DNA of 64,000 nt from Eledone cirrhosa (lineage: Eukaryota). The stretch covers positions 78,306,001 through 78,370,000 of the forward strand of contig OZ024741.1 in assembly GCA_964016885.1 (NCBI GenBank), written 5' to 3'. How positions within the stretch are numbered: position 1 is the stretch's first letter; each line of letters begins with the position of its first letter. Positions 1-48,759 of this stretch are shown piece after piece. Position numbers and translations under genes: made by a program. The notes below the pieces were generated by a model, which searched no databases, was not told the origin of the DNA, and saw only the letters and a list, made by a program, of their open reading frames with translations.

Positions 1-501
1 AGGGACCGCCGCCTTATTTTCTTTCCTACAAACTAGAACTTTGGTCTTAGACAGATTAATTTTAAGGCCTTTTGATTCTAGGCCGTGCTTCCATGTTTGG
101 AATTTCTTCAGCTTTGAGTGTTAGGTCGTCTGCGTATAGGAGTTCCCATGGGCAGCCGGTCTTGAACTCCTCTGTTATAGCCTGAAGGGCAATAATAAAT
201 AGTAGGGGGCTGAGAACAGAGCCCTGATGGACGCCAGCTTTTACGCTAAACTCTTCACTATATTCGTTGTTAATTCTAACCTCGCTGACTGTTTCTTTAT
301 ACATGGCTTGTATAGCTCTCACAAGCCATTCGTCGACACTTAGTTTTCTAAGGGCCCACCAGATAATGGAACGGGGGACTCTGTCGAAGGCTTTCTCCAA
401 GTCGACAAAAGCTAAGTAGAGGGGTTTACTTTTAGCTAGGTACTTCTCCTGTAGTTGTCGTACAATGAAAAGAGCGTCTGTGGTACTTTTGCCTGACACA
501 A
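1..501 (-). mobile_element. RTE LINE fragment (RT region), 5'-truncated, runs off the window edge
   Basis: Reverse complement matches the full-length LINE at about 23560-24080 (AFVDLEKAFD, GVHQGSVLSP, YADD). A ~20-bp deletion just after YADD causes a frameshift. Confidence 0.95.
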
Positions 502-593
502 ATATATAAATATATATATATTTATATAAATATATATAAATATATATATATTTATATAAATATATATAAATATATATATATTTATATAAATAT

Positions 594-628
<35 letters not shown>

Positions 629-637
629 AATATATAT
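502..637. repeat. (TA)n-type microsatellite with interspersed AAA/TTT
   Basis: Direct reading. It lies between two oppositely oriented LINE pieces. Confidence 0.95.
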
Positions 638-1722
638 ATAAAAGATGTAGTGGGATCACAGGTAAACTAACTAAGAACATAGATTTTACATGTGGCCGGT
701 GTTCTGGTGCAATAAGTAGCAGCAAGTGCCCACAAAATACTAGCTCTTTCAATTGCGCAGAGGGTTCTATAGAAATAGTGGACAGCTTCCGTTACCTGGG
801 CGATAAAATCAGCAGTGGGGGAGGGTGCTCTGAAAGTACTGTAGCTAGAGTCAGAACTGGTTGGAAAAAGTTCAGAGAGCTTATACCACTATTAGCTGCT
901 AAAGGGTTCTCCCTAAAAATGAAAGGCAGGTTGTACGATGCCTGCATACGAACAGCAATGTTGCATGGCAGTGAGACCTGGGCATTGTGTGCAGAGGATA
1001 TACGCAGACTAGAGAGGAATGAAGCTTGCATGCTCCGCTGGATGTGTAACAGTAATATACGTGAACGGCAAAGCATAAACGAACTAAGGAAAAAATTAGA
1101 GATAAGAGGGATCAGATGTTGTTTACTCGAGAGAAGGCTACGTTGGTATGGACACGTGATGCGCAGGAAAGTCGATAGCTGTATAACAAAGTGCAGGGCA
1201 ATAAAGATAGACGGTAGCCACGGAATAGGCAGACCTAGAAAAACCTGGGACGAGCTGATAAACTCCGACCTCACACACTTACACCTCTCCAAGACAATGT
1301 CACTGGACCGAGACCTTTGGCGGTACTCAGTAACAGAGAAGACCCGCCTTGCCAGTAGGCATCTCTAACAAATACACCCCGTCCCGCCACCACCCCCACC
1401 CATCCACACCACCCCGTCCTATGTAAAGTTATGTTGGTGCCGCGCCATCCAGACCGAAACAAATGAGATCGTGTAGGTGTCACGACAAAAAAACACACAG
1501 TCCACGCTGTAATGTGGCCGTGTAGGCAACACGGTAAAAACCTCCCAGACCCACACTGTAAATGTGGTTGGTGTTAGGAAGGGCATCCAACTGTAGAAAA
1601 CCTGCCAGACAGTCCTATGCGAGCAAGACAATCACTCTTGCCTCAAGTGGGACTACCCCCGTCCAAACCCATGCAAGCGTGGAACACGGACGTTAAACGT
1701 TGATGATGATGATGATGATGAT
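638..1722 (+). mobile_element. RTE LINE 3' fragment with 3' UTR and (GAT)n tail
   Basis: Nearly identical to 24163-25250. ORF 778..1368 ends in TRLASRHL. Confidence 0.97.
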
Positions 1723-5325: not shown

Positions 5326-5500
5326 AGGAGTAATGTAAGTGTTTTAACAGTGTATTAGTAAGACAAGAAATGGTGTAAGTGTTATAGCAAAGTATTTGTA
5401 AGACAAGGAATGGTGTAAGTGCTATAGCAGAGTATTAGTAAGACAAGGAGTAATGTAATTAGTAAGATATGAGTAATGTAAGTGTTATCACAGTGTATTA
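5320..5500. repeat. ~41-bp tandem repeat, about 4 copies, next to the splice donor
   Basis: agacaaggagtaatgtaagtgttatagcagagtattagta-like units. Confidence 0.85.
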
Positions 5501-5511
5501 GAATAACTTAC

Positions 5512-7784
5512 AGCATGTTCTGTTTCATCTTCTTCAGAGGAATCAGTACCTGAACTGAGAATGGAATTGGTATTTGGCATTTCAGCACTTCCTGAACCAC
5601 TATCTGAGGGCAAACTCATGAGACTGATTGAGCTCAATGGTCGATCATGCTTGAACGTGGGGCTCTTGTTTGAGATATCATTAATAATGTGCAGTTCAGG
5701 GTGACCAGTTTTAAGGGAAGTATTTACAAAACCTTTGTTGGTTTTTACAGGTATTTCTTTTAATAAGCCATTATATTGTTGATCAGATATAAGTGACTCT
5801 TGGCTATCAGCATTGGCTTTGTCTGCCATATCGTCCTCATTATAATTACGTGGAGGCACACGAGGTGGTGTTGGACTATGCTCTTTTGATTTGTTCTGTG
5901 GTACAGGGGAAGGAGAGTTGCAAGATAATTTGGGAGGGTGAAAAAAGTCTGTTACACCAGTATCAGTGATTTTTTCTGTAACACTGCCTCCATCTTCACT
6001 ATTTGAGCTTGTATCATCACTTTTAGTGCAAGGTGATTTTCTCTGTTCCTGTTCTCGACCATACCACCTGCGAGGTGGGGGAGGAACAGAGCTTTTCGAT
6101 ATGTTTGGGGAAGAGGCATCTGGTCGGTTGATCATTTTGTTACCTCCTCGAGTTGTTGGGGGGCTAGATGTTGACATGTCAGTGGCTTTCTGAAAGCTTT
6201 GACTTTGAGACCGACTTCGATTATTTTCTACATCTTGGCTATCGCTGCGATGGTCTGCAGCATCAGAACGACACCGCCGTAGAAGATTTTTGCGTTGAGG
6301 TTTTGGAGGGCCAGTTTTTCGAGTTTCAGGCTTCTGTCTTGTTAATATAGGTGCTCCAAGTTCTTGAGCTTGTTGGGAAGATGTGAAGTCAACGTGCATA
6401 AACTGGATGTCGGATGCTGTCAACCTAGAATGAGATCGCTTGATTTCCTCATGTTTGGGCCGAGGTGGTCGAGCAGGAGGTTTTGGAGGAGTTAAATTGC
6501 TGACATTCGTGTTAAGAAGGTCAAAAGGAAAATTGTTTGTTCGTATTTTATGTGGTAAGTGCACTTGCTCTTCGGGTTCTTGCCAACTTTTGAAGTATGT
6601 TTGGAACACGCTGATTCTATCAACAGAAGCTGACCTGAGTTTATAATCTCTAACTGGGACTTCAGGGGCTCGCCGCCGAGACCTTTCTGAAGATACCAAG
6701 TTGTCAACGTTTGGTTGAGACTTTAATATATTATTTACACATTCCTCAAATCGTTGTAATGATGTGTCTTCACTGTCTATTTCTTTATAGATACTTTCAT
6801 TGTTTACTGAATGGTTGACATGAGTTGGTTCCGAATGTGTTGATTCTAGTGTTGGGGGCTCACTGAGTGGTTGTGCTATAATGCTGTTCAGTTCATTTGT
6901 TGAACTTGCATCAGAATGGTAATCTGTTGTTGACGGTGCACCACTGTCACCAACAGATTCTGTAGAGTTCTGCCGTTGTAATAGTGAAAGTCGCCGTACA
7001 GGCACGGGACGTTCCCGAGGTTTTGGTCTAGGCTTTGGTTTCACAGGTGGAAGTGGTGGTGTTCTCCTGGTTTCTAAGTTATGTAATTGACTATGTTCAA
7101 AGGAACTTTTATGTGTGGGGTTTTGTTTGTTGTCTGATATTTTCTGGCCAATGATGTTGTTATTATTGTTTTTATCATTATTTAAAGTGTCTAATCGTTC
7201 AGCATCAACAGTGCTTGAAGAATATGACCGACTCTTCACTGTGCTGAAAGTTAGCTTGGTAGCAACTGTTTTAGATGAGAGCAATGATGAGCTTATGGTT
7301 CTTGTGATGACTTTCCTAGAATTTACCTGTGGGATATCAGTTTTGGAGGACAGTTGCTTTTCATCTTTCTTTTCCTTGTCAAAGGTATTAATGTTACTGT
7401 TACCGTTGTTGTTGTTATTATTATTGTTGTTGTTATCGTTAGGTATACAAGTAGTACTAGTTGTGGTAGAAATACTGGTAGAAGTGTTGTTCATGTGGCT
7501 GAGGTTGGTGTTGTTGAGTACGGAATTTAAAATCTTAGTCTGGATGTCATTTTTAGGGAATGGCGATTTCTTCACGGTCACTGGAGTAGAACTTGATGAA
7601 TTGGAAGCAGCACTTCTGGGCGGGTCTGTCCCTGTTGGTTTCTTTAAAGTAGGATGTGGGGGTGTTGTATCTTTGGGTGGTAGTTGTGGTGGTGATGATG
7701 TTGATGATAAAGATGATGATGATGATGATGGCGATGGTGATGATGATAAAGGTGAAGTCGGTGGAGGTGGTGCTTTTCCTTTAC
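5512..7784 (-). CDS. FGD6: FGD5/6-like RhoGEF large Pro/Ser-rich exon (2273 nt)
   Basis: ttttgcAG acceptor at 7785-86 and GTaagt donor at 5510-11. Open frame with phase 1/0, consistent with both neighbours. Contains ORF 5488..7581 with PxxP-rich motifs. Confidence 0.9.
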
Positions 7785-7984
7785 CTGCAAAATAATTAAA
7801 AACAAAAATAAATAAATATAACCAAAATGCAGTTTAAATGTTTATAATTTAACATGGAAGGGACTGTCTTAGAGAATGTCTTTGTAAAGAATCGATTAGA
7901 AAGGAGGAGAATGAAAGTGAAAGACAGTGAAAATAAGTGAGAATTAGAATTGGAGACAGAGAAAAGGTAAAAGGACTCTAAAAC

Positions 7985-19819: not shown

Positions 19820-19957
19820 AATTGGAATAAATGCTCTGAAATAGCGATATATATGTGAATATAGACATAGAATATTCGAAAATATTCTGTATGTTTATAA
19901 TAAACATTTTGAAGACCTAATCGCTATAGAATAGAATACGTCACGTATTACAATTAG

Positions 19958-20046
19958 ATTCTCGATAAAAGCAAGGGAAGTAATCTACGCGTTTCATTCT
20001 TGTTAGAAATCATCAGGACTACATATCCAGTGCTTTTATCGAGAAT
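19958..20046 (-). ncRNA. Type I hammerhead ribozyme, family A
   Basis: Reverse complement of the 20611-20699 motif. Confidence 0.85.
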
Positions 20047-20267
20047 GACACAGCTAGAGACTTATAGAATACTTAGCTGTGTACAGGAACTGGTTTGAAA
20101 GAGCGGTTGCCGGTCCGGCAGAAATTAGAAATTGGAATAAATGCTCTGAAATAGCGATATATATGTGAATATAGACATAGAATATTCGAAAATATTCTGT
20201 ATGTTTATAATAAACATTTTGAAGACCTAATCGCTATAGAATAGAATACGTCACGTATTACAATTAG

Positions 20268-20356
20268 ATTCTCGATAAAAGCAAGGGAAGTAATCTACGC
20301 GTTTCATTCTTGTTAGAAATCATCAGGACTACATATCCAGTGCTTTTATCGAGAAT
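20268..20356 (-). ncRNA. Type I hammerhead ribozyme, family A
   Basis: Reverse complement of the 20611-20699 motif. Confidence 0.85.
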
Positions 20357-20610
20357 GACACAGCTAGAGACTTATAGAATACTTAGCTGTGTACAGGAAC
20401 TGGTTTGAAAGAGCGGTTGCCGGTCCGGCAGAAATTAGAAATTGGAATAAATGCTCTGAAATAGCGATATATATGTGAATATAGACATAGAATATTCGAG
20501 CATTTATTCAGAGCATTTATTCCAATTTCTAATTTCTGCCGGACCGGCAACCGCTCTTTCAAACCAGTTCCTGTACACAGCTAAGTATTCTATAAGTCTC
20601 TAGCTGTGTC

Positions 20611-20699
20611 ATTCTCGATAAAAGCACTGGATATGTAGTCCTGATGATTTCTAACAAGAATGAAACGCGTAGATTACTTCCCTTGCTTTTATCGAGAAT
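20611..20699 (+). ncRNA. Type I hammerhead ribozyme, family A
   Basis: gtagtc-CTGATGA-t ttct aaca agaa t-GAAAC-gc-GTA/gattac. Stem I is extended by a 16-bp attctcgataaaagca / tgcttttatcgagaat helix beyond an internal loop. Stem III is the palindrome ACGCGT. Confidence 0.88.
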
Positions 20700-20920
20700 C
20701 TAATTGTAATACGTGACGTATTCTATTCTATAGCGATTAGGTCTTCAAAATGTTTATTATAAACATACAGAATATTTTCGAATATTCTATGTCTATATTC
20801 ACATATATATCGCTATTTCAGAGCATTTATTCCAATTTCTAATTTCTGCCGGACCGGCAACCGCTCTTTCAAACCAGTTCCTGTACACAGCTAAGTATTC
20901 TATAAGTCTCTAGCTGTGTC

Positions 20921-21009
20921 ATTCTCGATAAAAGCACTGGATATGTAGTCCTGATGATTTCTAACAAGAATGAAACGCGTAGATTACTTCCCTTGCTTTT
21001 ATCGAGAAT
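20921..21009 (+). ncRNA. Type I hammerhead ribozyme, family A
   Basis: Same motif, 310 bp downstream. Confidence 0.88.
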
Positions 21010-21093
21010 CTAATTGTAATACGTGACGTATTCTATTCTATAGCGATTAGGTCTTCAAAATGTTTATTATAAACATACAGAATATTTTCGAAT

Positions 21094-24000
21094 CTCTCTC
21101 TCTCTCTCTCTTAGCTACACACACACACACACATATATATATAAGATAAATTCCCGTTCATGTTTATTCACTTTCGCCAAACAATTGCTGCTTCAACTAC
21201 CCCTACTACGGTGTAACCATGTAATCGTAACGTTCACGTTTTTCCTATCTCCTCCACACACCACAATTTCGTACAAACATCCAATCCCGCAAAATCCGAA
21301 ATCTGTATTTTTTGTTATTTATTAAGGTTTAAATACGGTGTTTTTGTCGTATTGAACAGAACAAATCTTGCAGTTTTGCTTTTTGTTACTCGCTGGTAAA
21401 CATTCATAACCTTCCAGCTAGCTACCCCACATCCCTCCCACCCGCCCCCACACACCACCATTCTTAATACGTGGACCAATCATAAGCCAGAGACCCCCCC
21501 CACACGCATCACCATTATTACTATAAGCCAGAGACCCCCCCCCCACACGCATCACCATTATTATTATTACGCGGACCAATCATAAGCCAGAGGCCTATAC
21601 TATCGCTTGCACGGTTGCCTTCGATATATGATGGATGGATGGATTGATGGACGGACTGCGGAATCCTGGAGAGTGGAGGGGAGAGAAAAATCTGGACGCT
21701 CAGAGCGAAAATGCCAATGCTAAAGTCAAATTCACCTCGTGGACGAGAATGCGAGCACTCTTCTTTGTTTCGCCCGCGGATGGCTAACATAACCCCATCT
21801 CCCCCCGCCCCACACCACCCCCACCCTCCAAACGCGATCCAAAACTTCAGAGTTGGTACCATAAATGTAGGCACCCTAAAGGGGCGCGCTAACGAGGTTG
21901 TAGAAATGCTTGAACGTAAGGAGGTCGATGTTTGTTGTATTCAAGAGACCAGGTGGAGGGGTGGGTCTGCTAGATTCATTGAGGGTAAAAAACGATGTTA
22001 TAAGCTTTTCTGGGTGGGAAACGACGATGGGCTGGGTGGAGTAGGAATCATGGTAGCAGAAAAGTGGGCGGATAAGATAATAGACGTAAATAGAGTGAAC
22101 GACAGAATAATTAAAATACGACTTGTCCTCAATAGAACTACGGTGACAGTAATATCTGCGTATGCACCCCAATCCGGACTGCCCGGCACTATAAAAGACA
22201 GATTCTATGAGACACTGATGCTCACTACCTCCCAAATATCTGACAGTGACTATATAATTATTGCAGGCGACCTAAATGGTCACGTTGGGGAACATTGTGA
22301 CGGCTACGACGAAATCCATGGAGGCTATGGGTTTGGTACTAGAAATGAGGAAGGCTCCAGAATCCTGGAATTCTGTGATGCAAATAACCTAACTATCTGT
22401 AACACTAACTTCAAAAAACGTGACAATCACCTGATCACCTATAGATCCGGGGAACACACAAGCCAGGTAGATTATATCCTTACCAGAAGACGTGACAGAG
22501 TGTCTGTTGTAAACACTAAATCCCTCCCCCATGAAGAATGCACCTCCCAACATAGACTGATAATTAGCGACCTCATAGTCAGGTCGAGACGTACTCGACA
22601 GCAGAAGAGGACTATCCTCAGGAGAAAAATATGGAAGCTAAAGGACCCCACAGTCAAAAATAAATTTCAAAACATATTACTTGATGCTTTCGACAGTAAG
22701 GAAGAACACTTAGAGTCGGACAATATAGAGGGACAGTGGGAATTTCTGAAAGCAAACCTGCTGTTGGCCACAGACGAAGTCTGTGGCTGGAGCAGGCCTG
22801 TAGGCAGGAGGAGAGTAACATGGTGGTGGAACAGTAAGGTGGAGGAGTCAATTAAGGCCAAAAAGCAGGCTTGGAAAGTATGGCGGGATGGGGGAAGTAG
22901 AGTAGACTATCAAGTGGCCAGGAGGGAAGCTAGGAGAGAAGTGTACTTAGCAAGAAGGGAAGCTGAGGAAAGAAAGTTCAAGCATGTCCTACAACGCGAT
23001 GACCAAAAACGTGAGGTGTTCAGGATTGCTAGGCAATGCGTCAAGGAAAACCGTGATATTGTCGGGGAGAAGTGTGTACTTAACGATGATGGCATACTTG
23101 CCATCACCGACACTGATAAGAAGGCAGCTTGGAAGTGTCACTATGAAAGGCTACTAAATGAGGAGAATAAATGGGAGAAAGACAGTCTCCCCCATGTCGA
23201 CCCAATAGAGGGACCAGCAGTGTTAGTCGAGGGGAGTATAATAAGTAAGGCAATCAAGGATATGAAGACAGGTAAGGCGGCTGGGCCTTCGGAAATAGTT
23301 GCTGAGATGCTGAAGGCATCTGGCACGGTGGGACACACCATGGTCACCCGCATAGTTAACCAAGTCGTACAGAATGGGGCTGTTCCGAAGGACTGGCATA
23401 GCAGCATCATCGTTAACTGTTATAAGGGTAAAGGAGACGCCCTAGATAGGAGTAACTATAGAGGCATTAAATTAATCGACCAGGTCATGAAGGTCACAGA
23501 AAAAGTAATAGCGCAACTAATCAGAGAGAGAATTGACCTAGATGAAATGCAGTTCGGGTTTGTGTCAGGCAAAAGTACCACAGACGCTCTTTTCATAGTA
23601 CGACAACTACAGGAGAAGTACCTAGCTAAAGGTAAACCCCTCTACTTAGCTTTTGTCGACTTGGAGAAAGCCTTCGACAGAGTCCCCCGCTCCATTATCT
23701 GGTGGGCTCTTAGAAAACTAGGCGTTGACGAATGGCTTGTGAGGGCTATACAAGCCATGTATAAAGAAACAGTCAGCAAGGTTAGAATTAACAACGAATA
23801 TAGTGAAGAGTTTAGCGTAAAAGTTGGCGTCCATCAGGGCTCTGTTCTCAGCCCCCTACTATTTATTATTGCCCTTCAGGCTATAACAGAGGAGTTCAAG
23901 ACAGGCTGCCCATGGGAACTCCTATACGCAGACGACCTGACACTCATAGCGGAATCAATGGCCGAGCTAGAGAAGAAATTCCAAACATGGAAGCACGGCC

Positions 24001-25250
24001 TAGAGTCAAAAGGACTTAAAATTAACCTGGCTAAGACCAAAGTTCTAGTTTGTAGGAAAGAAAACAAGGCGGCGGTCCCTTCTGGGAAATGGTCGTGCTC
24101 GGTGTGTAGGAAAGGCGTAGGTAGAAACTCCATTTTGTGTCCTAAATGCAAAGTATGGGTGCATAAAAGATGTAGTGGGATCACAGGTAAGCTAACTAAG
24201 AACATAGATTTTACATGTGGCCGGTGTTCTGGTGCAATAAGTAGCAGCAAGTGCCCACAAACTACTAGCTCTTTCAATTGCGCAGAGGGTTCTATAGAAA
24301 TAGTGGACAGCTTCCGTTACCTGGGCGATAAAATCAGCAGTGGGGGAGGGTGCTCTGAAAGTACTGTAGCTAGAGTCAGAACTGGTTGGAAAAAGTTCAG
24401 AGAGCTTATACCACTATTAGCTGCTAAAGGGTTCTCCCTAAAAATGAAAGGCAGGTTGTACGATGCCTGCATACGAACAGCAATGTTGCATGGCAGTGAG
24501 ACCTGGGCATTGTGTGCAGAGGATATACGCAGACTAGAGAGGAACGAAGCTTGCATGCTCCGCTGGATGTGTAACAGTAATATACGTGAATGGCAAAGCA
24601 TAAACGAACTAAGGAAAAAATTAGAGATAAGAGGGATCAGATGTTGTTTACTCGAGAGAAGGCTACGTTGGTATGGACACGTGATGCGCATGAAAGTCGA
24701 TAGCTGTATAACAAAGTGCAGGGCAATAAAGATAGACGGTAGCCACGGAATAGGCAGACCTAGAAAAACCTGGGACGAGCTGATAAACTCCGACCTCACA
24801 CACTTACACCTCTCCAAGACAATGTCACTGGACCGAGACCTTTGGCGGTACTCAGTAACAGAGAAGACCCGCCTTGCCAGTAGGCATCTCTAACAAAATA
24901 CACCCCGTCCCACCACCACCACCCCCACCCCATCCCCACCACCCCGTCCTATGTAAAGTTATGTTGGTGCCGCGCCATCCGGGCCGAAACAAATGAGATC
25001 GTGTAGGTGTCACGACAAAAAAACACACAGTCCACGCTGTAATGTGGCCGTGTAGGCAACACGGTAAAAACCTCCCAGACCCACACTGTAAATGTGGTTG
25101 GTGTTAGGAAGGGCATCCAACTGTAGAAAACCTGCCAGACAGTCCTATGCGAGCAAGACAATCACTCTTGCCTCAAGTGGGACTACCCCCGTCCAAACCC
25201 ATGCAAGCGTGGAACACGGACGTTAAACGTTGATGATGATGATGATGATG
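21094..25250 (+). mobile_element. Apparently full-length RTE-type LINE inserted into the 310-bp array
   Basis: The array unit is split precisely at ttcgaat|attctatg. The insert has a 5' region with CCAAT-containing tandem repeats, a single ORF, a 3' UTR and a (GAT)n tail. No clear target-site duplication. Confidence 0.95.
21711..24893 (+). CDS. LINE ORF: APE endonuclease, reverse transcriptase and PHD-type Cys/His finger (1060 aa)
   Basis: TINVGTL, CIQETRW, AGDLNGH and SQHRL (APE); AFVDLEKAFD, GVHQGSVLSP and YADD (RT); CSVC..CPKC..WVHKRC..CGRC. No stops. Confidence 0.97.
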   Translation: MPMLKSNSPRGRECEHSSLFRPRMANITPSPPAPHHPHPPNAIQNFRVGTINVGTLKGRANEVVEMLERKEVDVCCIQETRWRGGSARFIEGKKRCYKLFWVGNDDGLGGVGIMVAEKWADKIIDVNRVNDRIIKIRLVLNRTTVTVISAYAPQSGLPGTIKDRFYETLMLTTSQISDSDYIIIAGDLNGHVGEHCDGYDEIHGGYGFGTRNEEGSRILEFCDANNLTICNTNFKKRDNHLITYRSGEHTSQVDYILTRRRDRVSVVNTKSLPHEECTSQHRLIISDLIVRSRRTRQQKRTILRRKIWKLKDPTVKNKFQNILLDAFDSKEEHLESDNIEGQWEFLKANLLLATDEVCGWSRPVGRRRVTWWWNSKVEESIKAKKQAWKVWRDGGSRVDYQVARREARREVYLARREAEERKFKHVLQRDDQKREVFRIARQCVKENRDIVGEKCVLNDDGILAITDTDKKAAWKCHYERLLNEENKWEKDSLPHVDPIEGPAVLVEGSIISKAIKDMKTGKAAGPSEIVAEMLKASGTVGHTMVTRIVNQVVQNGAVPKDWHSSIIVNCYKGKGDALDRSNYRGIKLIDQVMKVTEKVIAQLIRERIDLDEMQFGFVSGKSTTDALFIVRQLQEKYLAKGKPLYLAFVDLEKAFDRVPRSIIWWALRKLGVDEWLVRAIQAMYKETVSKVRINNEYSEEFSVKVGVHQGSVLSPLLFIIALQAITEEFKTGCPWELLYADDLTLIAESMAELEKKFQTWKHGLESKGLKINLAKTKVLVCRKENKAAVPSGKWSCSVCRKGVGRNSILCPKCKVWVHKRCSGITGKLTKNIDFTCGRCSGAISSSKCPQTTSSFNCAEGSIEIVDSFRYLGDKISSGGGCSESTVARVRTGWKKFRELIPLLAAKGFSLKMKGRLYDACIRTAMLHGSETWALCAEDIRRLERNEACMLRWMCNSNIREWQSINELRKKLEIRGIRCCLLERRLRWYGHVMRMKVDSCITKCRAIKIDGSHGIGRPRKTWDELINSDLTHLHLSKTMSLDRDLWRYSVTEKTRLASRHL

Positions 25251-25575
25251 ATTCTATGTCTATATTCACATATATATCGCTATTTCAGAGCATTTATTCC
25301 AATTTCTAATTTCTGCCGGACCGGCAACCGCTCTTTCAAACCAGTTCCTGTACACAGCTAAGTATTCTATAAGTCTCTAGCTGTGTCATTCTCGATAAAA
25401 GCACTGGATATGTAGTCCTGATGATTTCTAACAAGAATGAAACGCGTAGATTACTTCCCTTGCTTTTATCGAGAATCTAATTGTAATACGTGACGTATTC
25501 TATTCTATAGCGATTAGGTCTTCAAAATGTTTATTATAAACATACAGAATATTTTCGAATATTCTATGTCTATAT
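25251..25575 (+). repeat. Remaining ~1 unit of the 310-bp array
   Basis: Continues the unit broken at 21093 and ends in (TA)n. Confidence 0.95.
25388..25476 (+). ncRNA. Type I hammerhead ribozyme, family A
   Basis: Same motif, with CTGATGA at 25418. Confidence 0.88.
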
Positions 25576-43218: not shown

Positions 43219-44111
43219 CGAGGTGTGTCAGAAAAGTTCCAGGACTGATGTCACAAAAGATTTATTTCAAACCCAAACTTCACACTAAGAGTTTTCTCCT
43301 TCAAAGTAATCCCCTGGAGTATGTAACTGTAATCTTAGCTCTCTGCAGCGATCAAACTTTTTTCTTTATAATTTTATAAACATGTCCTCTGTTTCAGGTC
43401 GTCAAGCAATGATCACAGAGCAACGAACAAACTTGAAAACTCCGTCAGAAGCACTGGGATTGCTGCAGCAAGTGTATGGAGATAAGACGATGTCATGTTC
43501 ACGTATTTTTGAGTGGTGCAAGAGGTTTAAAGAAGGACGCGAGGACGTGAAAGATGACCCCAAGAGCGGAAGGCCCTCAACAACCAGGACTGAGGTCAAC
43601 GTTGAGCGCGTCAGGCAGATGGGGCGTAGTGATCGTGGGCTGACTGTTCGACTGATGGCAAATGAGCCGGGCATGAATCGGGACAGCATCTGGAAGATTC
43701 TCACTGAAGATTTGGATATGCGGAAAGTCTGCGCGAAGATGGTGCCAAAACTGCTGAACGATAACCAGAGGGTCGACGCATGCAAGTGTGCCAGGACATC
43801 CTCGAGCATCTTGAAACCTAATCAGACTTGCTAGGGACAGTCATCACTGGTGATGAGTCATGGATTTTCGAGTACGATCTGGAGAGGACCCGTTTTGAAG
43901 ACGTGGATGACATCAAAAAGGCCATGAGGACGGAACTGCGAAGGATCCTGGAAGAATCCTTCCAGGAGTGCATGCAAGCGTGGCAGAAAAGGATGGAAAA
44001 GTGCATTAGACTCCAGGGGGTTACTTTGAAGGAGAAAACTCCTAGTGTGAAGTTAGGGTTTGAAATAAATCTTTTGTGACATCAGTCCTGGAACTCTTCT
44101 GACACACCTTG
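43219..44111 (+). mobile_element. Internally deleted mariner transposon
   Basis: ~55-bp terminal inverted repeats (cgaggtgtgtcagaaaagttccaggactgatgtcacaaaagatttatttcaaaccc) and TA flanks. Peptides FEWCKRFKEGREDVKDDPKSGRP and ITGDESWIFEYD. Confidence 0.93.
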
Positions 44112-47348: not shown

Positions 47349-47852
47349 GTAGATAAATCTACCAAAATATACGGTAGTGTCCAATCCGTATGAAGAACTC
47401 AATGTAATCCAAATATCATGAAAAGAGAAGATGTATTCAAAAATTTTTTCAATGAAAATCACAGGAAAACAGAGTCTAGATAAATTAATAAAAACAATGA
47501 ATAAAAACAAAGAAACAGTTCCTTATATTAAAAAAATCATCATTTTACGATCGTTTCTAGGATATATATGTGTGTGTTGGTATGTATATCATATAGATCT
47601 ATGTAAACATTTTACAAACTATCGGAGGAAATATACATACCTACACATATATATGCTGTCTTCAGAAATAAGACAGCATATATATGTGTAGGTATGTATA
47701 TTTCCTCTGATAGTTTGTAAAATGTTTACATAGATCTATATGATATACATACCAACACACACATATATATCCTAGAAACGATCGTAAAATGATGAATTTT
47801 TTAATATAAGGAACTGTTTCTTTGTTTTTATTCATCGTTTTTATTAATTTAT
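47349..47852. mobile_element. Fold-back copy of hammerhead family B (183-bp arms 47480-47662 / 47670-47852)
   Basis: Near-perfect palindrome. The minus strand at 47537-47669 retains CTGAAGA...GAAACGATCGTA. (TA)n lies on both sides. Confidence 0.88.
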
Positions 47853-48447: not shown

Positions 48448-48759
48448 TCTTTGTTTCGCCCGTGGATGGCTAACATCCGCGCCATCCAGGCCGAAACAAA
48501 TGAGATCGTGTAGGTGTCACGACAAAAAAACACACAGTCCACGCTGTAATGTGGCCGTGTAGGCAACACGGTAAAAACCTCCCAGACCCACACTGTAAAT
48601 GTGGTTGGTGTTAGGAAGGGCATCCAACTGTAGAAAACCTGCCAGACAGTCCTATGCGAGCAAGAAAATCACTCTTGCCTCAAGTGGGACTACCCCCGTC
48701 CAAACCCATGCAAGCGTGGAACACGGACGTTAAACGATGATGATGATGATGATGATGAT
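48448..48759 (+). mobile_element. Internally deleted RTE copy: 29 nt from the ORF start fused to the 3' UTR
   Basis: 48448-48476 matches 21762-21790 at 28/29 positions. 48477-48759 matches 24970-25250. Confidence 0.88.

Follow-up and report, generated by a model that had tools for sequence, protein, structure and literature searches.

Breakpoints of recurrent internally deleted LINE copies in Eledone cirrhosa trace a predicted long-range RNA duplex

How does a retrotransposon come to insert two distant parts of itself as one short element? The question is raised by a LINE copy at positions 48448–48759 of the window, the 64,000-nt stretch of Eledone cirrhosa DNA analysed here, which also harbors a full-length parent-type element whose window coordinates serve below as LINE positions. 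The short copy opens with 29 nt (48448–48476, + strand) corresponding to LINE 21762–21790 at 28/29 identity, passes through a blunt junction into the 3′ UTR from LINE 24970 onward (48477–48735, +), and closes with a (GAT)8 tail (48736–48759, +); from the junction to the end, 48477–48759 matches LINE 24970–25252 at 98.9% identity over 283 nt, tail included. The initial annotation had described this fusion correctly, and had read it as a LINE copy missing exactly the 3.2 kb looped out by a panhandle of paired RNA ends. Our analysis narrows that account. The junction skips 3,179 nt, which take in the 3′ strand of a predicted inner helix besides the loop, and the 668-nt 5′ part of the LINE is gone as well; the two breakpoints do lie within the complementary segments, with 21790 in the inner helix and 24970 in a 7-nt bulge; and the segments are not the RNA ends, the 5′ arm lying ~670 nt inside the LINE and the 3′ arm ~250 nt from the tail.

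The short copy and its parent LINE

The parent-type element is a full-length LINE at 21094–25252 (+), with a start assigned from copy extents (many of 100 fetched copies run to 21094–21133) and near-twins elsewhere in the genome at up to 99.8% identity. One intact ORF of 1,060 aa (21711–24893, +, ATG at 21711) encodes an AP endonuclease, a reverse transcriptase (RT) and a PHD finger, recognized by Pfam as Exo_endo_phos, RVT_1 and PHD; the best protein cluster carries the same three domain families, and the nearest solved protein is L1 ORF2. The 3′ UTR is built from degenerate repeat units of ~48 nt each and ends in a (GAT)n tail (25232–25252, +). A single ORF with AP endonuclease and RT, followed by a short-tandem-repeat 3′ tail, is characteristic of RTE elements, and from this anatomy we take the LINE to be RTE-like; no named RTE reference appeared among the protein-cluster and solved-structure matches of the ORF, and an Rfam scan of 21050–25300 returned 0 matches. 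A 16-nt 5′-arm pattern has 1,054 matches genome-wide, and the young LINE family has ~1,000 copies bearing the arm. In PMC9115989, microsatellites are presented as a common RTE feature, and the octopus RTE described there, with a C2H2 finger and a microsatellite 3′ UTR, appears to belong to a different family from the window LINE.

The full LINE is embedded in a 310-bp tandem repeat (window 19874–21093 and 25253–25560) that also occurs inverted at 19874–20277. At window 1–1722 lies a copy of the same family with a twin-priming-like inversion of its 5′ part (23559–24080 reversed at 1–502, then 24163–25252). Elsewhere in the genome, a ~120-nt duplication in the 3′ UTR (LINE 25024–25145) marks a subfamily (loci L036, L070, L114, L222, L242, L247 and L248), and ~45 tandem copies of the 48-nt 3′ UTR unit at L163 (886–3115) form a minisatellite born from the LINE UTR.

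The 5′ piece of the short copy could in principle have been folded back from the 3′ arm. Its C at 21773, an extra base before GGATGG, and TAACAT could not have come from such a fold-back, and the local alignment to a fold-back of the 3′ arm spans only 21 nt, with one mismatch and one gap. An origin by fold-back or 5′ inversion was rejected, given the 28/29 match to the sense arm and the subfamily bases of the 5′ arm that the piece carries; the initial annotation had likewise preferred the ORF start. Splicing was also rejected: the skipped part in the window copy runs AA...TG, not GT...AG, and junction sites vary between copies. The joined arms are predicted to fold into a hairpin (48450–48500, +; −31.5 kcal/mol, z −5.07, 0/200 shuffles). 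Because the flanks are (TA)n/(CA)n microsatellite, no target duplication is callable.

Together with loci L017 and L084, the short copy carries a common 3′ UTR variant (window 48666, LINE 25159), while at 21773 (window 48459) it has C and they have G. This mismatch would reflect either repeated mutation, an unsampled subfamily, or a 5′ piece taken from another RNA molecule. A near-perfect MITE-like palindrome with arms of ~165 bp, noted by eye, lies 600 nt upstream of the short copy (window ~47500–47835). Elsewhere in the window, a Pro/Ser/Asn-rich 781-aa open frame (5488–7833, −) is probably a large host exon, and a frame at 43310–43834 (+) presumably resembles the N-terminus of a mariner-type transposase.

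Recurrence and independence of junction copies

Patterns joining the two arms matched 29 loci at gaps of 0–30 nt and 15 loci at gaps of 31–91 nt, and reversed control patterns over the same gap ranges gave 0 matches. One further locus came from a search with the older arm (which returned a similar number of matches to its reversed control, the locus itself being a true junction) and two from a sample of TA-flanked copies, giving 47 junction loci in the genome; after removal of L143 and L144, whose flanks are common with L120, 45 insertions remained. Mutated copies escape exact patterns, so these counts are lower bounds. Breakpoints were placed by dynamic programming and 5′ ends by exact-match calling, with a by-eye check at 14 loci. 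Junction copies start with the LINE's own arm right after target DNA, have 3′ parts 88–99% identical to the window LINE, and carry the (GAT)n tail at 45/47 loci. At L259 (G000:C24, ~5908464–5908530), two slightly different 5′ pieces (~21746–21773) stand in tandem before the junction, possibly reflecting two successive jumps or a small duplication.

Among the first 100 of the 1,054 5′-arm matches (contig C1 up to 196 Mb), one is an arm-to-arm junction and 96 of the other 99 extend upstream of the arm; none of these 96 skips to the 3′ arm, which was out of reach in 11. The arm was captured in ~1 in 45 truncations within the 30-nt zone (C1 sample, first 100 of 1,253 rows), which makes the junction copy a rare by-product. 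In contigs from four sequencing runs, none of the 15 joints listed, out of 148, connects the two arms, a result of no weight either way.

Do these copies record separate events, or the spread of a few deleted masters as a SINE-like or SIDE family? Two junctions recur, 21790|24972 seven times and 21790|24970 five times, as amplification would predict, and L122 and L125 match in both junction and 5′ end, so that a small two-copy master is conceivable. The 45 insertions nevertheless comprise 31 different junctions in old and young subfamilies, with the recurrent ones spread over different subfamilies. On a 3′ UTR tree of 47 junction and 82 other copies (those without a usable 3′ arm excluded, support values rough), the junction label needs 27 changes, at least nine of them forced by well-supported branches, and one origin for the junction copies is found in 0% of bootstrap trees. 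Relative to shuffled labels the junction copies are slightly clustered (27 versus 35 changes), in part through an older-subfamily bias compared with the pattern-selected full-length set. One supported clade, corresponding to a subfamily, holds five copies with five junctions, and three sets of identical 3′ parts each contain both junction and full-length copies. The two halves of a copy nearly always come from the same subfamily, down to the A-U or G-C state of the pair 21767:24990, where L130 and L259 disagree.

The junction diversity, the tree and the subfamily-matched halves together indicate repeated events, mostly in cis, not a SINE family. Amplification from one or a few masters, against which the lack of a 5′ UTR or RNA head also counts, is very improbable, and its single-master form is largely refuted by junction diversity and the tree. 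Thus the genome contains clustered, independent junctions at the duplex and not the identical-junction SINE that the initial annotation had named as the alternative; its further suggestion of a route to SINE-like elements finds no support, since the copies are without 5′ UTR and show no clear amplification on the tree.

Footprint and structure of the predicted duplex

The 5′ arm (21759–21793, +), inside the ORF, contributes the 5′ strands of a predicted outer helix (21759–21782) and inner helix (21783–21793). The 3′ arm (24958–24998, +), in the 3′ UTR, supplies the opposite strands of the inner helix (24958–24968) and outer helix (24976–24998), separated by a variable 7-nt bulge (24969–24975); the inner helix has 11 bp, including G·U pairs.

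The ends of the junction copies follow this outline closely. Landings in the 3′ UTR number 28/45 at 24964–24976 and 15/45 at 24948–24957, an unpaired AU-rich zone (+) just beyond the inner helix, with 0 at 24958–24963 and 2 farther upstream, so that 43/45 lie beside or within the predicted duplex (24948–24976). The 5′ strand is broken at or before 21793 in 22/28 bulge landings versus 1/15 outside landings; the two strands of the inner helix thus tend to share one fate, both retained or both lost. A cut directly after U21790 is compatible with 17/45 junctions. All 45 junction insertions also begin at the duplex edge (21746–21778), versus 3/99 non-junction copies. Fisher values for these contrasts are far below 0.001 but rough, the samples being pattern-derived. 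Overlap at the junction is 0, 1, 2 and 3 nt in 23, 12, 8 and 4 of 47 loci, by a method that ignores inserted bases and slightly undercounts two junctions.

Copies without the junction behave differently. Plain 5′ truncations end in the inner helix at 20/44 loci (by eye, first 100 of 1,253 rows), a count inflated by TA microhomology with the target, versus 1/45 junction landings. In a TA-flanked sample of arm-ending copies chosen without regard to the junction (the first 100 of 132 rows, 47 loci minus 2 chance matches), 23/45 skip to 24936–24976, 19 run on and 3 are cut off; skipping to the 3′ arm therefore occurs in 23/45 arm-ending copies versus 0/96 of those extending farther 5′. Internal deletions are thus enriched at the duplex, as the initial annotation had predicted, and control patterns gave 0: joining the 5′ arm just downstream (24977–25006) yielded 0 junctions, with that anchor present in 74/86 copies, and joining another ORF anchor to the 3′ arm also yielded 0, with that anchor present in 90/100. 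A control with the anchor 21856–21866 was void, its 20 matches, 10 of them aligned, being native 3′ UTRs of older relatives.

A 5-nt direct repeat common to both arms in older subfamilies accounts for 0 junctions, though 35/45 events come from such subfamilies, and a 14-nt C-rich repeat on the loop side is no junction hot spot. Because no homology is used at the junctions, slippage and microhomology repair are disfavored, and homology-driven slippage was rejected. Piwi slicing was rejected as well: a guide that begins near 21762 would direct cleavage to about 24988, within the interval 24977–25006 that holds 0 junctions.

That every such deletion comes with a 5′ end at the duplex edge links these events to retrotransposition, since loss of DNA after insertion would have left the 5′ UTR in place. 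Inverted repeats are known to make DNA unstable, and other internal deletions occur among the 100 sampled copies, as expected if hairpin slippage or recombination removed genomic DNA after insertion. Such a process should retain the 5′ UTR in ~97/100 copies, and 0/45 have it, on which ground post-insertion deletion was rejected. A fold-back at 5′ truncation, the other way to the same product, conflicts with 5′ pieces that bear 5′-arm subfamily bases, not 3′-arm ones; we regard this pair of explanations as highly improbable.

Separate observations concern neighboring positions. Several young copies among loci L016–L115 begin within LINE 21720–21745, at 21721, 21722, 21725, 21731, 21736, 21739 (three times) and 21743, making this stretch a possible truncation hot spot. 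L022, L111 and L070 each reach upstream of the arm and carry a deletion that begins at 21794, 21791 and 21842, respectively, and lands in the ORF (at 22876, 22139 and 23360); the arm's loop-side edge may be prone to breakage in general.

How firm is the duplex itself? Pairing of the 5′ arm with the 3′ UTR is predicted at −44.1 kcal/mol, compared with −29.6 ± 3.3 for shuffled arms (0/300 as low), and among 376 LINE windows compared with the 3′ UTR the arm ranks first, ahead of unrelated G-rich ORF windows that reach −40.3; the shuffle test and this ranking show that the complementarity is more than chance. An ungapped inverted-repeat search sees 17 nt of the duplex, at rank 10 of 51. Against the first 3′ UTR repeat unit the 5′ arm reaches −40.7 kcal/mol, versus −10.6, −12.9 and −17.4 for the next three stretches. 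Older relatives carry an unmodified repeat at the 3′ arm site, from which we infer that the outer half of the 3′ arm is a later gain.

The evolutionary record is mixed. Among 81 copies having both arms, the pair 21767:24990 is G-C in 68 and A-U in 8, the change being synonymous (Leu). The pair 21773:24984 is unpaired in 40/81 (T·C in 27, C·C in 12) and is broken in the youngest, most abundant subfamilies; 21774:24983 is broken in 18/81. At 21783 and 21785 the older family pairs A-U and C-G in place of the young family's G·U, and at 21774:24983 it has A-U in place of C-G; in this older family, a 3′ arm is recognisable in ~9/20 fetched loci, and 5/20 are without 5 nt of the 3′ strand of the inner helix. 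Across lineages this amounts to two double and two wobble changes against two pairs broken in large subfamilies, all from few lineage events, and the 5′ positions 21774–21789 are fixed by the search pattern and so give no evidence for conservation or covariation. The mean non-major fraction is 0.014, 0.005 and 0.031 in the helix strands, 0.028 in the rest of the 3′ UTR and 0.20 in the bulge (n = 80); the rest of the 3′ UTR is about as constant as the helix strands, and the bulge alone stands out.

We conclude that the junction copies are real, recurrent and well beyond chance, and that the duplex is predicted by folding and footprinted by their ends. Folding and footprint together make it quite probable that the arms pair at the RNA level, and the junction copies likely record the pairing of two distant RNA parts in the cell. 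The reading of the short copy as a fossil of a long-range duplex is in this respect well supported by the clustered independent junctions, for a duplex that itself is predicted.

Candidate mechanisms and known systems

We tentatively favor, at somewhat under even chances, an origin of the short copy in arm pairing within a broken, trimmed transcript, whose annealed 5′-arm fragment would receive the jumping RT. The arms would pair in vivo over 3.2 kb; nucleases would cut the unpaired loop and strip the 5′ UTR, leaving a 15–110 nt fragment held by the duplex. Target-primed reverse transcription is established for such elements, and by this route RT would initiate on the (GAT)n tail where the target is TA-rich, copy up to the break in the bulge or just beyond the inner helix, jump end to end without homology, copy the fragment, and halt at its 5′ end. 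The products we observe are dead-on-arrival insertions, mostly of 300–400 nt. A broken RNA with an end-to-end jump is favored as the simplest way to explain the three sets of clustered ends at once, and PMC3414825 documents template jumps of non-LTR RT in vivo and in vitro.

The initial annotation had proposed that RT jumped across the paired arms. On intact RNA, a plain jump leaves unexplained why all copies stop at the duplex edge; breakage and trimming of the RNA, or RNA ligation, match the data at least equally well. A more elaborate version would have RT pause at the bulge or inner helix end, switch to the adjoining 5′ strand, and be released at the arm edge as the helix re-forms and the cDNA snaps back. 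Proximity alone would predict both landing zones and the matching 5′ breaks, and the strong fold of the joined arms and the common subfamily of the two halves agree with it; 5′ end positions show no clear difference between the two landing classes by eye, and so do not separate trimming from snap-back. Yet the blunt 21790|24970 junction, present in at least three subfamilies without homology, better suits fixed RNA ends, and in none of the 45 copies does synthesis continue into the 5′ UTR, not even in L227 with its 380-nt loop. We consider this version possible but distinctly doubtful, though it, like ligation before reverse transcription, suits the data almost as closely as the broken-RNA jump.

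Breakage could also be repaired before reverse transcription, an endonuclease removing the loop and an RtcB-type ligase sealing the ends held by the duplex. The blunt junctions and the 17/45 that fit a cut right after U21790 would be expected from ligation, and PMC6789731 describes RtcB ligating U6 to broken L1 RNA ahead of retrotransposition. A separate cause, trimming or cDNA snap-back, would then be needed for the 5′ ends, and a quarter of the junctions show 2–3 nt overlaps that ligation does not need. We hold this route to be unlikely; with DNA products alone as data, it is inseparable from the RT jump.

The arms could pair at the cDNA stage instead, with near full-length cDNA losing its RNA at integration and repair nucleases cutting the loop and 3′ flap before end joining. 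With DNA parameters the arms would still pair at −27.7 kcal/mol, and flap trimming by repair enzymes would explain the 5′ ends. The G·U pairs tolerated in evolution, however, become C·A mismatches in cDNA and shorten the inner helix, and repair by end joining should have exploited the 5-nt and 14-nt repeats, neither of which is used. The DNA-level panhandle seems to us slightly less likely than ligation.

What might the duplex do in an intact LINE under the favored account? The 5′ arm spans codons 17–28 of the frame from ATG 21711 and covers an in-frame ATG at 21780; with the first codons buried, pairing would compete with translation, and our guess is a switch between translation and packaging. 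More broadly, the predicted fold and its footprint raise the possibility, which we hold with less than even confidence, that a non-LTR element circularizes its RNA by means of a selected duplex that joins the first codons to the 3′ UTR and derives from a reshaped 3′ UTR repeat unit, and that the genome holds dozens of natural proximity-ligation products mapping this duplex within a few bases. The literature covered, which took in few subscription papers and none of the original ones on RTE and Bov-A, contained no report of such 5′–3′ pairing in a non-LTR element. That the breakpoints of 45 events trace a predicted duplex and stop at its edge offers a concrete, testable cause for internally deleted LINE derivatives and points to an RNA control element over the ORF start in a young LINE family with ~1,000 arm-bearing copies. 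Insertion junctions become usable as a footprint of RNA structure and, if the proposal is true, RNA structure in any LINE family could be probed through its deletion junctions.

Several known systems share parts of this picture. L1-type 5′ inversion, or twin priming, also yields a 5′-truncated LINE with an extra piece making an inverted repeat, whereas in the junction copies the extra piece has the sense orientation and originates 3.2 kb upstream. In flaviviruses and HIV-1, 5′–3′ pairing circularizes the viral RNA. Long-range pairing of 5′-proximal and 3′-proximal retroelement RNA likewise underlies Ty1 CYC5/CYC3 cyclization (PMC3592414); Ty1 is an LTR element in which pairing serves priming and strand transfer, while the window LINE is a target-primed non-LTR element with a predicted duplex. 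The R2 template-jump chimeras of PMC3414825, with snU12 or tRNA at the 5′ junction, similarly carry a short RNA piece upstream of the reverse-transcribed non-LTR sequence; unlike them, the junction copies would capture their own ORF start, chosen by pairing, at an internal 3′ UTR break. In the U6/L1 chimeras made via RtcB (PMC6789731), a blunt joint again connects a short RNA and a 5′-truncated LINE, but here a single element supplies both parts, which are complementary to each other, and ligation is suggested by analogy.

The closest relatives are the bipartite non-autonomous LINEs and SIDEs, among them RTE-derived Bov-A and WALLSI3, an R2 SIDE, RIME, Vingi derivatives and also Ingi (PMC5786205, PMC3414825). 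RTE is reported as one of only four clades to make bipartite derivatives, and the main text of PMC5786205 states the cause of their internal deletions to be unknown and does not contain the term "base pair". If our proposal is true, a cyclising duplex could be a general reason why RTE, among few clades, spawns bipartite elements and SINE bodies. Like these elements, junction copies unite 5′ and 3′ portions of a single LINE by internal deletion. They begin with the LINE arm in place of a SINE head from tRNA, 7SL, 5S or another small RNA, and the LINE's own 5′ end, where a promoter or ribozyme would lie, is absent from all 45 (LINE start ~21094). Since they differ in two features, the 5′ end and amplification, we do not file them as SIDEs or SINEs, though they are akin to the first step of such elements: bipartite LINEs and SIDEs, in the accounts cited, as a rule retain the very 5′ end and expand into families, whereas junction copies lack the 5′ UTR, form repeatedly, and have breakpoints apparently set by complementary arms.
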